DNA of 64,000 bases from Psilocybe cubensis (taxonomy: Eukaryota), in the NCBI GenBank assembly GCA_017499595.2, contig CM039007.1, positions 310,001 through 374,000 on the forward strand, written 5' to 3'. The position numbers were made by a program, and so were the translations under genes. The notes beneath the pieces were generated by a model. It searched no databases and had not been told where the DNA came from. It worked only from the letters and a program-made list of their open reading frames with translations. Positions 41,473-50,646 of this stretch are shown piece by piece; position 1 is the first letter of the stretch; the number at the start of each line of letters is the position of its first letter.

Positions 41473-42647
41473 CTACATTATCACACATCGACAGCTGTAC
41501 CCAAAACATTCAAATCGGCATCCAGGACAATCACATCCAGCCTCGCTTGGTGGTGTCTGCCGTGAAGGGGTAGATTGCGTGATTGGAATAGTGGCAGTAG
41601 CGGCTGGTTGACTCGTTGCATTCTTCTCCACGTTTGCTGGCACGACGTTTACCTTCGCCGGATTATAATCGATTGAAAGGGCCCTAGTTACCGACCTAGA
41701 CTCCAGCCAGTCCTTAGGGACAAAAGTGAGGGCATACGAAAACGCTTCCGCATTTGCGTCTCTCACATAATTCATCTGCAAGCGTAAGCAATCGATGTGC
41801 TTGCGCAAGAAAGAGGTATTACCTTGTTTACATAGTCCTCGTAAGCGTCCCGGAGCTCGAGCCATGTCGGCATAGTAGTGGGGATTTTTTCCCTGGCATT
41901 GAGATAGGTGATCTCGCCGAGTTTCTCATCTTGATGATTCTGCACCATGCCGGTTTTGGTCCACCAGCGCTTAAACATGTTGATACACTCTTCCAGGTTA
42001 TGCAGAACGGTGTCAAAGTTGTTTTCCAACCCTTTATGTATGTCGTTTAGTTAGCAAATTGTTTCATTTGAGTCAGAGAGATAGCAGATATGCTGACCAT
42101 TTAGCCTGTCGACACCTTTGTTTGCCTTGATAGCCTTTGAACGGAACAGATAGTCTCACATTCAGTTGATCCCACAGCGTGTCGAAGCAGGAAAAACTTA
42201 CATCTTTGATCCCTCTTTGCACGTTTCGAAATTCCCGAGCTGTTTCTTCTGCCTCCTTCGCTCCCGTGGATGCACAGCTCTTCATCTGCTCGAGGTATTT
42301 AGCGATGTCGTCCTCGCTTGCCAGGTGGATTTTTTCGACTAAACCAATCCCTTCCTGGGCAACAGCATGCCCCGTCTGAGCAGCGTCGATTCCGGTATCG
42401 TATGCCTTGACAAAATTTCCGACTTGCTTCCCAATTATGACGGTCGAGGGTGACCTAGATAGTCTAAGCCTTTTTCTCCGCTGGCAGTCCCCTTCATCAA
42501 AGCTTACTGTCTGTCTGGATCAGAGGAGGCAATTGCCAGTCGCCAATCATTAACAAAGACAAAAAACGAGTTCGTCGAGTTTTTGAGGGATATTAGCTGC
42601 TGCTTGTACTCGCTGCTATCATGGGTCTGAATTCGCGAATCGCCCAT
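41473..42647 (-). CDS. Helical-bundle family paralog A, C-terminal CaaX (CVIM)
   Basis: Five exons: MGDSRIQ..NDWR / QVGNFVKAYDTGIDAAQTGHAVAQEG..YLEQMKSCASTGAKEAEETAREFRNVQRGIKD / AIKANK.. / LEECINMFKRWW..WLELRDAYEDYVNK / MNYVRDAN..GCDCPGCRFECFGYSCRCVIM*. Confidence 0.8.
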
Positions 42648-44005
42648 GATGTCTATGCTTGTTCGAGATAAAACGAAGCGGTGAGTGGATTGTGGAGTGA
42701 GTACGGATACAAAGCAACAATTTGCTTCTATATGCAACTCCTCGCAGCTTTCGATAAACATACACGCTGGTCCCTCGGACGGTGCGTTCTCCGCGTTTGA
42801 ATGAAGGGAAGATGTCAAAGTTTCAATCCACGTTGCAAAAACGCAATGCTTACGGCGTTTCGAGAATGATCGATCCATTGCAAAATTTGCCACCCTCTAC
42901 ACGATATGAATTTAATTTTGAGATGGCATATTGTGAAGGATACCACCGGCAGCCTCGAGGTATCCTAGATGCACAACAAATCAAAACGTAATGGGGCGGC
43001 AGACGAACAAACCCTCCGACGGTGCCAAATCTAGGCTAGCAGGTAAGTCACAAGAACATCGAAATGTTGGTCAAAATGTTGGTCACCACCTGTATTTCTC
43101 TACCCCTGGGAGTATGTTGGAAACGAAGTCAAAGTGAGGAAGTTTTCTAGGCCGTTGACTTAAACACAAGTTGCCGTATCGTAGAAACCCAATAGAAACA
43201 GGCAAGAAAGAAACAGGCTTAACGTGCTGTCCATGGGCCATGCCGGGCATGGCATTCTACATTGCATCGGCGTTTCAAATTATCGAACTCCGTATCACTT
43301 TTTGACAGTGTTTGTTGAACCGTGTCTGTGACAAACATGACATGCTCTTTCTTCATAACCACTCTGTGGCTGGTCTGTGGCGCAATTTGTGCCAATGGAG
43401 CACGTCTTTCTGTCTTGTATGGCATCCCAAACGCCAATAAGTTCTATAATCTTAGTATCTTATCCGACTCACATGCAGTTTTACTAATTTGTCGATATTC
43501 CAGCTCGACACGCGACGGTATTGAGATGTTTGTTGGGTCATGTATTGAAAAATTCCGTCAATGCAACAACGATAGGAACTTTTGCACGTATATTTCTCAG
43601 CGGTATTAACTTGAGCATAAATTGAAACGTTTCGTTTCAAAATTATTCTAGTTTTTAACTGATTTATCACTGTTTAGAGGTTGTTTGACTCGTCATTTTC
43701 TTACAGGTGCAGTAATAATTGTCAAAGCTCGATGATACTCAGTTGTTGTACAGAGATATATTTGCGCGATTATGAAGAGAGGCTAATAAAGACCTTTGTG
43801 CACACTGCGTATCTCCCAGAAAGCGATTTTTTCAAGGCTCAATGTCATTGTCATATTACAACAAACGCATTATTCGAGGCAAGGTCATTCTACTTTATTT
43901 CCGTCGCCATTTGCATTTACGTGTATCTATTCATCTTTTACAAGTAATATAGGCATGATGGCAGTCTCAACATTTGCTTGAATCCATACCGATAATGCCC
44001 ACCGT

Positions 44006-48880: not shown

Positions 48881-49633
48881 AAAGTTGAACAAGCTTGTGT
48901 GAGCTACTGAGGGAAAGAGAAGAAAAAAAAGGTGTGTAGAAATACTTACTGGCGGTATAATAAATGAACCAATGACGATAAAATTGTGTCCTTTGGATCT
49001 ATTCTCCGCGGAGTGCAAGGAACCTTTAATTAGTACGGGTCAGATCATATGGGCGACTCCAAGTCGTTCAGATCGATGGATGAGGACTTCCTCTGTCAAA
49101 TGTCGTAACCCACAGAGCTTTCAGCCTTGTCTAACATGCGCAGTACATGTGCCACTTGCTGGACATTCCGAACGAAAACCGATGGACATCTTCGATCTCC
49201 ACTCCTGTACCCTTGTGGATGGGTGTCTGCCCATTGAGGAAAATACGGGCGCTAAGTGGCTCTTGAAACTTGATTGTGACCTCTGGGACTCCAGGAGTTA
49301 CTTCATTGTAAAGGCGTGTGTACTAATATATATGGGCGGTTGAAACAGCGTGCAGGCCTGCACCACACCATTAATTTCATTAATAAGCCGGTGAAGTCGG
49401 CAATTTGCGCACATGTTCCGTCTGCTTCTGGCCGACTTCGTAAGGGCTCTTTTCGTCGACGTTGAGTTGGGAGGCCTTATCAACAACTAGTACCATGCGT
49501 GATACACGTTCAATGCATCATGACGTATACACTGTGAAGAAGTTCTTTAGCGCCTTCACTTCCAGGGGTCTTTCGATACCTGCCATCCATCCTCCGATAC
49601 ACATACAGCAAAAGAGATATCCCGCCTCTCAAA

Positions 49634-50646
49634 ATGTCCCTGTATGTTAAACTAGAGACGCCAGGAGCATTCGACTTTGCGGCATTTACACGCGCAACTC
49701 GCGGCACGTTAGCTTTACTTGCTTCCTTGCTCAAGTTCCAAAAATGGTACGCACTTTTCTGAATATGAATCTTGCCAGTGATCACAGAATTATGACGCCA
49801 GTGACCCTACTGTATTGGGACAGATTGAGGCCCAGGTTTCTGGATTTGTAAAAGCAATTAGACTGGGAACAAGCGCTGCCCAATGCGGATTCACCACAGC
49901 AGAAGATATCCTGATTCTCTCCGAACTTGTACAATCAACTACCCTGGAGGAGCGTCGTGAATATCTCAATGGAACTCTTGAGCTCGCAGATCAAGCCTAC
50001 TCTCAAAGCAAAGAAGCTCAACAAGTATTTAGGCAAGTGAGGACCGAGATCATGTCTGTGAGTAATGACATAAATTCTCGTGTTGAAACGCAAACGATAC
50101 TTTATGTTAGATTGTCGGAAAGCTCAACAGCGTGGAGACTGTTTCCAAACCCTCTAGTTCGGCGACTCGGACTTCTTTAGAAGGCCGTCTACGCGGAATT
50201 GAAGCACTGGATAGTTTTGAAAAGCACATATCAGCATTAGCAGATTGGTGGGACTGGATCAAAATTGAAACGAAGGTTCAGCGAAACGGTAGATCTGCTA
50301 TCGTCGACTTCGATGACTCGTCTTTAAGAGAAAGATCCGTCATTGATCGATGGAAATTACTGCGAGTACAGTTCTTGGATTACACCAATATGGTAAGCGT
50401 CATTCCTCGATTTATCGATGAAATTTGTTTGTAGTATTCTCAACAATGATACAGGTGGGCCAATTGGAGGATTCTTATCCAGAGCTCTTTTCAAAATCCT
50501 ATCAAATTTCGACTACATATCAAAGACCAGAGCAGAAAGGTTACCAGGATTCGCGACATGTATTTTTTCGACAGGATTTACGTCGCGCTCTAAATGCCAT
50601 CAAACGATCTTCGAGACAAGGAATCTGTCTATGCATAATCATCTAA
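49634..50646 (+). CDS. Helical-bundle family paralog E, C-terminal CaaX (CIII)
   Basis: MSLYVKLETPGAFDFAAFTRATRGTLALL / IEAQVSGFVKAIRLGTSAAQCGFTTAEDI..ADQAYSQSKEAQQVFRQVRTEIMS / ..LDSFEKHISALADWWDW..WKLLRVQFLDYTNM / VGQLEDSY..RQGICLCIII*. Confidence 0.78.

Follow-up and report, generated by a model that had tools for sequence, protein, structure and literature searches.

A five-gene array of Psilocybe cubensis encodes predicted headless rods resembling the tail of ClyA-superfamily toxins, several of them with putative lipid anchors

What do five neighbouring and strongly diverged genes of the mushroom Psilocybe cubensis encode, and might their products work together at a membrane? The genes, named A to E here, occupy positions 41473-50646 of a 64,000-nt window, the whole stretch of DNA that was analysed and to whose positions all coordinates refer; A-D lie on the minus strand and E on the plus strand. 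We found that the five are divergent paralogs belonging to an unnamed family of Agaricomycete proteins. Models of two orthologs are five-helix rods shaped like the tail of the ClyA superfamily, the head of these toxins being replaced by a short loop, and many members end in a predicted membrane-binding device, most often a CaaX box. Rods of the ClyA type are familiar as toxins that bacteria secrete; the possibility of an intracellular, membrane-anchored counterpart in fungi is weighed below against four rival explanations.

The array, its gene models and their transcripts

The motifs of the array were found in ten exon-sized pieces among the stop-to-stop open reading frames (ORFs) at 41.4-50.7 kb. 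Four public sequencing runs (X1-X4), none of them on record as RNA, were compared with this region. Contigs of X1 and X2 skip GT..AG segments (CT..AC on the minus strand), while those of X3 and X4 are unbroken there, and this skipping of introns is our sole ground for taking X1 and X2 as derived from spliced RNA. From the joints, A, C and D have four introns apiece and E has three, and spliced contigs of these four genes are all present in the single run X1. Gene B had almost no cover in X1 or X2, and its intron positions were placed by analogy only. The gene models are the following.

41473..42647, minus strand: gene A, 313 aa, from spliced contigs of X1 and X2 with four CT..AC joints; approximate exons 42506-42647, 42201-42452, 42097-42133 (micro-exon), 41823-42030 and 41473-41775, the edges of which may move by 1-2 nt within what the RNA joints permit
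44006..45628, minus strand: gene B, 459 aa, modelled by analogy with A, without RNA support; exons, by the same analogy, 45477-45628, 45149-45425, 45052-45094 (micro-exon), 44784-44989 and 44006-44707
46185..47147, minus strand: gene C, 244 aa, without a CaaX box, from an X1 spliced contig with four joints; exons 47014-47147, 46703-46955, 46605-46644 (micro-exon), 46322-46545 and 46185-46268
47612..48880, minus strand: gene D, 346 aa, without a CaaX box, from spliced contigs of X1 and X2 with four joints; exons 48759-48880, 48450-48702, 48333-48390 (micro-exon), 48052-48275 and 47612-47995
49634..50646, plus strand: gene E, 280 aa, from an X1 spliced contig with three GT..AG joints; exons 49634-49746, 49802-50057, 50111-50392 and 50455-50646

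The five proteins can be aligned over about 230 residues at a pairwise identity of 18-36%, and AAQxG(F/Y/H), FRxV, WW and WxxL...YxxY are present in all of them. When the five models were compared by tblastn with the whole window, cross-matches (E 1e-4 to 1e-23) appeared at these five loci only, which argues that the array is not a chance pattern. A first-pass annotation, prepared from the letters of the window, had described five genes with a common motif skeleton, in which A pairs with B, C pairs with D, and E stands nearer to C/D. Alignment, motifs and tblastn bear out this description, and the identities follow the same pairing: 36% for A/B, 31% for C/D and 26% for D/E, versus about 20% for A or B against E.

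Three introns are common to the five genes, in the same alignment column and the same phase once ambiguities of the cut are allowed for: a phase 2 intron after helix 1, a phase 0 intron after FRxV... and a second phase 0 intron after YxxYTxx. These are the three equivalent positions that the annotation had pointed out, those of gene B being set by analogy. The splicing it proposed is likewise supported by the spliced contigs for A, C, D and E, but it had overlooked a further phase-1 intron in A-D, which creates a micro-exon of 37, 43, 40 and 58 nt in A, B, C and D, respectively, and is missing from E. Over 218 residues gene E is identical to the UniProt entry A0A8H7XUW5_PSICU (P0001), the model of which reads through the last intron; the RNA joint and the P0001 model concur in placing the end of exon 1 of E at 49746.

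The divergent orientation of D and E delimits one further feature:

48881..49633, no strand: intergenic stretch of 753 bp separating the divergent start codons of D and E, in model coordinates

This interval may be regarded as a candidate shared promoter region. As for gene A, the start codon that homologs match is preceded in the spliced contig by at least 380 nt (42648-43090, minus strand), with an extra 59-nt intron at 43031-43089, and the frame is open up to 42896 with in-frame Met codons; this additional sequence could represent a long spliced leader or lengthen the protein at its N-terminus, or two transcripts could have been joined in one contig. The window also differs from the strains behind X1, X2 and X4 by small indels (at 47458, 47589, 48923 and other positions) and by many single-base differences; in the 3' region of gene D these strain differences include a deletion of 2 nt and an insertion of 3 nt.

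Predicted fold and the place of the head

AlphaFold2 models were obtained for two database orthologs rather than for the window proteins themselves, namely P0002, the P. cyanescens ortholog of E (288 aa), and P0085, a Galerina protein of the A/B type. The P0002 model, computed from a 48-sequence alignment, had a predicted local distance difference test score (pLDDT) of 84.3 and a predicted template-modelling score (pTM) of 0.77, with a low-confidence tail; its helices span residues 15-37, 41-80, 86-134, 141-185 and 205-231. The P0085 model (51 sequences) showed the same five helices; the pLDDT of its domain blocks was about 90, and residues 268-335 formed a disordered tail. Both models are five-helix rods of about 230 residues.

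To which known structures are these rods similar? ClyA/HlyE and the Hbl, Nhe, Ahl, Smh, Mak, Xax/Yax/Pax and Cry6Aa entries make up one superfamily, as the titles of PMC5004264 and PMC5935710 also reflect, and its members filled most of the top places when the models were compared with 48,161 chains using VIA-align, a search independent of Foldseek for which the 50 best rows were listed in each case. For P0002, ClyA-superfamily toxins made up 13 of the 16 top rows: the best values were those of AhlB (Z 16.4, rmsd 3.9, 216 residues aligned) and Hbl-B (Z 15.8, rmsd 4.0, 225 residues aligned), followed by the mushroom protein PsPCP (15.6), SmhA (15.4), HblL1 (14.3), Cry6Aa (14.0), NheA (13.2) and MakB (13.2), and by YaxB (12.3), MakA (11.8), XaxA (11.8), MakE (11.7), AhlC (11.2), PaxB (10.5) and the mushroom protein AB21 (10.2). 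For P0085 the toxins accounted for 11 of the 13 top rows, the Z values including those of XaxA (15.7), Hbl-B (14.8), PsPCP (14.6), Cry6Aa (14.3), a designed bundle (14.2), YaxB (14.0), PaxB (13.8), HblL1 (13.4), NheA (13.4), MakE (13.3), AhlC (13.1), AhlB (12.4) and SmhA (12.3). When the top 1000 chains of Foldseek were aligned by VIA-align, the first 19 rows consisted of 18 ClyA-superfamily entries plus PsPCP; soluble ClyA (1qoy) reached Z 14.0 over 216 residues, and the first unrelated protein Z 13.4. Across the alignments the best Z for a ClyA-superfamily protein rose to 16.5, with 195-225 residues superposed and an identity of 5-13% in the structural alignments. For both proteins the language-model neighbours included an HlyE cluster (0.86 and 0.88) and a cluster in which 19% of the members carry Bacillus_HBL (0.88 and 0.89), but scores of 0.86-0.89 count as leads only. 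The ClyA-like fold guessed in the first-pass annotation thus finds its counterpart in both ortholog models, for which nearly all top VIA-align matches are ClyA-superfamily proteins, and we consider a fold shared with this superfamily to be well supported by the models.

In ClyA-type toxins the head, with a hydrophobic beta-tongue or helical hairpin, sits between the third and fourth long helices. At the corresponding junction of helices 3 and 4 the ortholog models have a loop of 5-6 residues (135-140 in P0002), and the FRxV-to-WW stretch of the window proteins is polar (mean Kyte-Doolittle hydropathy -0.26 to -0.69), variable in length and partly encoded by the micro-exon. Models and linkers agree with the earlier suggestion that a short polar linker replaces the hairpin. 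None of the five proteins has a hydrophobic N-terminus; their maximal 19-residue hydropathy means lie at 0.47-1.12 and never above 1.12, as would be expected from the lack of a signal peptide noted before, and equally from the lack of a transmembrane segment.

C-terminal anchors and the family in other genomes

The annotation had also overlooked a CaaX box at the end of three of the five window proteins and, in gene B, the long repetitive spacer ahead of it:

41476..41487, minus strand: CaaX box CVIM of gene A, with a Cys-rich run upstream (6 Cys in the last 25 residues)
44009..44020, minus strand: CaaX box CIIM of gene B, with C-K-C upstream
50632..50643, plus strand: CaaX box CIII of gene E, with C-L and a basic stretch upstream
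44250..44588, minus strand: 18-bp tandem repeat in the tail of gene B, about 15 copies, encoding a Glu/Arg-rich segment that separates the bundle from the CaaX box

A Cys-x-Cys or Cys-Cys arrangement at the CaaX box is that of dually lipidated proteins such as Ras2 and Ykt6; by analogy, a CaaX box with one or two extra Cys predicts farnesylation plus palmitoylation, as in Ras2. From these endings, lipidation and a location at membranes are predicted for the members that carry them. The tail of gene B comprises 236 aa, of which Glu, Arg and Lys together make up 56%. Across its repeat (44250-44500) the DNA assemblies of X3 and X4 fragment into many short contigs, perhaps because the copy number varies among strains, perhaps only because such a repeat is difficult to assemble. 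Gene D has a basic-aromatic peptide, KRERFLHFIGLK, near its C-terminus (near 47690-47730).

How far does this architecture extend beyond the window? An exhaustive phmmer search with P0002 as the query returned 143 representative clusters at E <= 1e-3, 71 at <= 1e-10 and 9 at <= 1e-30; the extent of the family is based on this search, word-indexed homolog searches having given 2, 10 and 1 matches. The query and the 29 matches that were looked up from these clusters are all from Agaricomycetes and are all annotated as 'hypothetical protein'. The genera sampled comprise Galerina, Psilocybe (P. cyanescens), Panaeolus, Gymnopilus, Crassisporium, Agrocybe, Cyclocybe, Cyathus, Crucibulum and Infundibulicybe and, outside the Agaricales, Serendipita also carries family members. 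No Pfam family was matched by 26 long members (E <= 0.01) or by 50 members (E <= 5), the raw exon ORFs gave chance-level Pfam matches only, and full-text literature searches found no description of this family.

A Cys at position -4 was present in 24 of 145 family proteins, and CaaX-like ends in 16 of the 71 proteins with a near-complete domain; CaaX proteins generally represent about 1-2% of proteomes, according to the available part of a published account (PMC10541624). The true share in the family is probably higher than 24/145, because many database models, P0001 among them, end within the last intron. Ortholog endings include CVVS (P0002), CWIV (P0003), CCFQ (P0085) and CLCQ (P0102). Many members without a CaaX box terminate instead in a short basic-aromatic peptide, e.g. 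RKRDFLLRVAHRFW, KRFFRSIFS or RFFARLFCL, and P0009 terminates in a long hydrophobic stretch; both kinds of ending may be alternative membrane-binding ends, the basic-aromatic peptide perhaps forming an amphipathic helix that replaces the CaaX box. A peptide of the K/R-x-F-F-x-R-x-F type recurs at or near the C-terminus of P0023, P0030, P0053, P0062 and gene D of the window.

A quick maximum-likelihood tree of 74 domain rows, built without P0001, which duplicates E, contained a well-supported A/B clade with CaaX boxes in all four rows, an E clade with them in 5 of 8 rows and a C/D clade with them in 2 of 12. The distribution of CaaX boxes on this tree required 9 changes versus 14.7 in shuffles, and in 0 of 500 shuffles was the number as low. 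Members of the three subtypes adjoin elsewhere as well. In Galerina the consecutive accessions KDR78017, KDR78018 and KDR78019 are of the E, C/D and A/B types, respectively. The P. cyanescens proteins CVT25_005406, 005410 and 005414 lie on one 32.6-kb contig, with 000513 and 000514 on another; Crassisporium has six members from KAF8153795 to KAF8153828, plus P0004, on contigs listed as equally long, and in Cyathus KAF8993545 and KAF8993547 are two accession numbers apart. E-type and A/B-type members carry a CaaX box in Galerina, P. cyanescens and the window alike; the C/D-type member of Galerina has none, and the D-type model of P. cyanescens (P0034) is too short to tell. Together, these arrangements suggest that at least three old subtypes (E, C/D and A/B) have been kept side by side in several genera.

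Some members contain the domain more than once. P0132 and P0151 of Serendipita (746-749 residues, four accessions) have three copies, at residues 9-257, 262-494 and 492-737, and two other family proteins have two copies per chain; such chains could be real fusions or merged gene models. On the tree the Serendipita copies cluster with one another, an indication of internal triplication outside the Agaricales.

Other genes of the window have no obvious link to the array, namely a DUF6535 protein at 32083-33498 on the plus strand (E 1.9e-38), a protein kinase at 26086-26844 on the minus strand (E 1.9e-29) and a short-chain dehydrogenase fragment at 62339-62815 on the plus strand. Two long ORFs, at 35333-38749 on the minus strand (1139 residues) and 4486-7335 on the plus strand (950 residues), are uninterrupted and had no Pfam match at E <= 1e-4, the former giving weak coiled-coil-type matches only at E <= 0.1.

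Possible functions and comparison with known systems

How might such proteins act? In the mechanism that we propose, each protein would begin with a five-helix rod, about 230 residues long, that is similar in shape to the tail (stalk) of the ClyA superfamily and bears a short polar hairpin in place of the head. The rod would be followed by a disordered or Glu/Arg-rich spacer, variable in length (about 20 to 440 residues), and, in many members, by a C-terminal membrane-binding device: usually a CaaX box accompanied by one or two additional Cys, in other members a basic-aromatic amphipathic peptide, and in one a hydrophobic stretch. Because signal peptides are missing and many C-termini are lipid-type or amphipathic, the proteins would be attached to the cytosolic side of a membrane, leaving the rod available for partner binding. 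The lipid-anchored E and A/B types and the mostly non-lipidated C/D type would then assemble through their rods on the inner leaflet, and the assembled rods would change the organisation or permeability of the membrane, in settings such as defence, cell death or self/non-self reactions. That the rods would work together is suggested by the three subtypes being kept adjoining, two of them with predicted lipidation, and by the triple-domain chain of Serendipita. The first-pass annotation had proposed an intracellular membrane-acting, multi-component system; the CaaX boxes lend support to the former and the adjoining subtypes of other genera to the latter, and the hetero-assembly of the paralogs and any effect on membranes are steps that we infer. 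On the whole, a membrane-anchored assembly of ClyA-like rods altering the organisation or permeability of the fungus's own membrane is the reading that we tentatively prefer, as possible rather than probable.

Several observations weigh against this reading. The membrane-inserting element of ClyA-type toxins is absent from the five window proteins, with no hydrophobic segment in its place; C and D have no CaaX box; and the clustering in other genomes was read from accession order and equally long contigs, not from DNA. With regard to the fold, Foldseek found no match in the PDB at E <= 0.001: its best match was PsPCP (8ii8; E 5.2e-3, template-modelling (TM) score 0.45/0.55), and AhlC, ClyA, SmhA, Hbl-B and NheA followed with TM scores of 0.23-0.45. 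According to the aligner's own note, a best Z of about 14 is typical for mostly helical models and arises from the arrangement alone, and designed bundles attained Z 13.4-14.2 against our models. Furthermore, HlyE (PF06109), Bacillus_HBL (PF05791) and related Pfam models had no match in 50 members at E <= 5, and the family profile, compared with the sequences of solved structures at E <= 10, gave 11 weak unrelated matches (flagellin, YbdK and others), with no ClyA-type protein and no PsPCP among them. Finally, PsPCP, a monomeric ligand binder, matches the models as well as the toxins do. Modelling followed by structure search, the check suggested for the ClyA fold in the first-pass annotation, gave a divided answer, with ClyA-superfamily matches from VIA-align but nothing from Foldseek at E <= 0.001 and an equally good match to PsPCP. 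As a Z of about 14 is generic for helical rods, the identity is low and no profile matches, we accept the fold, and common descent with the ClyA superfamily is no more than a possibility.

A bolder form of the membrane reading, which we hold to be improbable, would make the family an intracellular eukaryotic counterpart of the bacterial tripartite ClyA-type toxins: three co-inherited headless rod subtypes, two of them tied by farnesyl and palmitoyl groups to the inner leaflet, would co-assemble to open or reshape the cell's own membrane when required, a regulated device for cell death, incompatibility or defence. A parallel has been noted between Bcl-2 proteins and colicin-type toxins, and the relation of such a device to the bacterial alpha-pore-formers can be likened to it.

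The good match to PsPCP raises the question of whether the rods are instead carriers of hydrophobic ligands, like PsPCP or apolipophorin, enclosing in a central cavity a lipid, a polyene or a prenyl chain, possibly their own farnesyl, and storing, transporting or presenting small molecules with no action on membranes. PsPCP is among the top three or four matches of both models, with nearly the whole chain aligned, and is the best match of Foldseek; in addition, the near-invariant residues of the family (A56, G67, A100, F114, W177, W178, W211 and Y221) are small or aromatic and lie within helices. PsPCP is likewise an Agaricales protein of five helices, headless and with its polyene in a central cavity, as stated in the available part of its report (PMC11311226). 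However, the identity in the structural alignments is 7-9%, the family profile misses 8ii8 among solved-structure sequences even at E <= 10, PsPCP is monomeric with no lipid anchor described in that part of the report (PMC11311226), and a simple carrier role leaves the conserved three-subtype clusters unexplained. We regard a carrier role as unlikely.

Still less likely, in our opinion, is that the proteins are membrane-anchored scaffolds or tethers with a layout like that of tail-anchored or prenylated SNAREs, so that the ClyA likeness would be the generic look of a long bundle. The order of helical domain, spacer and C-terminal anchor would suit such a role, as would the long Glu/Arg-rich spacer of gene B and its ending CCIIM, which is also that of yeast Ykt6; designed bundles reach Z 13-14 against the models, and an Atlas structure search put a SNARE-containing cluster first (TM 0.42/0.51). 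On the other hand, no SNARE or syntaxin Pfam model was matched by 50 members, no syntaxin occurs in the 50 listed rows of three VIA-align searches, and ClyA-superfamily entries fill nearly all the top rows, over 200-225 residues and in two independent models.

Could the domain be the execution domain of a fungal innate-immunity or cell-death pathway, HeLo- or MLKL-like and triggered by NLR-type receptors? In P0082 of Crucibulum laeve the domain (residues 8-222, E 8e-9 to P0002) stands ahead of an NPHP3_N/NACHT-type P-loop region (E 2.4e-12), in P0044 it stands ahead of TPR repeats, and tandem arrays of divergent lineage-specific paralogs are common for genes of this kind. Nevertheless, the NACHT fusion occurs in 1 of 143 clusters, and P0082 may be a merged gene model; its N-terminal domain, compared with proteins of 359-1145 residues, matched only itself and yielded no second case. 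HeLo, HeLo-like, Goodbye and SesA Pfam models had no match in 50 members or 26 long proteins, and HeLo, MLKL and syntaxin structures do not appear in the 50 listed rows of any VIA-align search, which does not by itself exclude them. We consider such a role very unlikely. Equally hard to believe is that the proteins are toxins stored in the cytoplasm and released on feeding by fungivores, by analogy with nematicidal Cry6Aa and the cytoplasmic defence proteins of mushrooms, for although Cry6Aa is a strong match (Z 14.0 and 14.3) and AB21, a fruiting-body-abundant Agaricales rod (PMC7765987, available part), matches at Z 10.2 and 10.8, the proteins have no hydrophobic head or other membrane-insertable segment and lipid anchors would hold them on the fungus's own membranes.

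The choice between these explanations has consequences beyond this array. If the rods act together on membranes, they would constitute a eukaryotic membrane machinery of a new kind, with a toxin fold as its basis, and would offer a testable model of the intracellular re-use of toxin folds; if they are ligand carriers, the PsPCP type would be widened to a large family. Either way, the family merits a name and a Pfam model.

How, then, does the family stand with respect to the systems already described? It shares with ClyA-superfamily toxins the elongated five-helix tail bundle (195-225 residues superposed, Z 12-16.5, in two models) and the habit of neighbouring, strongly diverged paralogs of two or three types. 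It differs from them in lacking the head domain and the hydrophobic hairpin and any detectable sequence similarity; its members are eukaryotic, intron-bearing and without a secretion signal, and carry CaaX or amphipathic C-terminal anchors behind long spacers. Moreover, pore formation is a feature of the toxins, whereas the Psilocybe family is known from genes and ortholog models. We did not file the family among the ClyA toxins because two of their defining features, the head and a match to the sequence models, were not found in it.

The endings of the proteins recall Ras2, Ste18 and Ykt6, in which a Cys-(x)-Cys-aliphatic-aliphatic-X C-terminus is also found, as in CCIIM of gene B; the N-terminal domain of these proteins is unrelated, and lipidation of the Psilocybe family is a prediction.

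Two mushroom proteins come closest in shape. PsPCP, the pink chromoprotein of Pleurotus salmoneostramineus (8ii8), is monomeric, consists of five helices and holds a polyene in a central hydrophobic cavity, according to the available part of its description (PMC11311226). Like the family it is a headless five-helix rod of about 225 residues from the Agaricales, superposed nearly over its full length (P0002: Z 15.6, rmsd 3.4, 206 of 225 residues; P0085: Z 14.6, 202 of 225 residues); unlike the family, it is a soluble polyene-binding monomer, for which no gene cluster or lipid anchor is described in that part of the source (PMC11311226), and with its 7-9% identity it is absent from the matches of the family profile at E <= 10. 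AB21 of Agaricus bisporus (6fpd), described in a published passage as a rod-like bundle related to ClyA-superfamily toxins and abundant in fruiting bodies (PMC7765987), is likewise a rod-like helical bundle of the Agaricales, but the match is weaker (157-161 residues aligned of a 191-residue chain) and it has no known anchor. AB21 and PsPCP have stood as two isolated mushroom proteins of the same shape, their role unclear or unrelated. The family encoded by the array is distinct in being widespread in gilled mushrooms, transcribed, arranged in three-subtype clusters and predicted to be anchored by lipids inside the cell; as an unnamed Agaricomycete family of headless rods with these properties, it is new relative to the ClyA tail, PsPCP and AB21.

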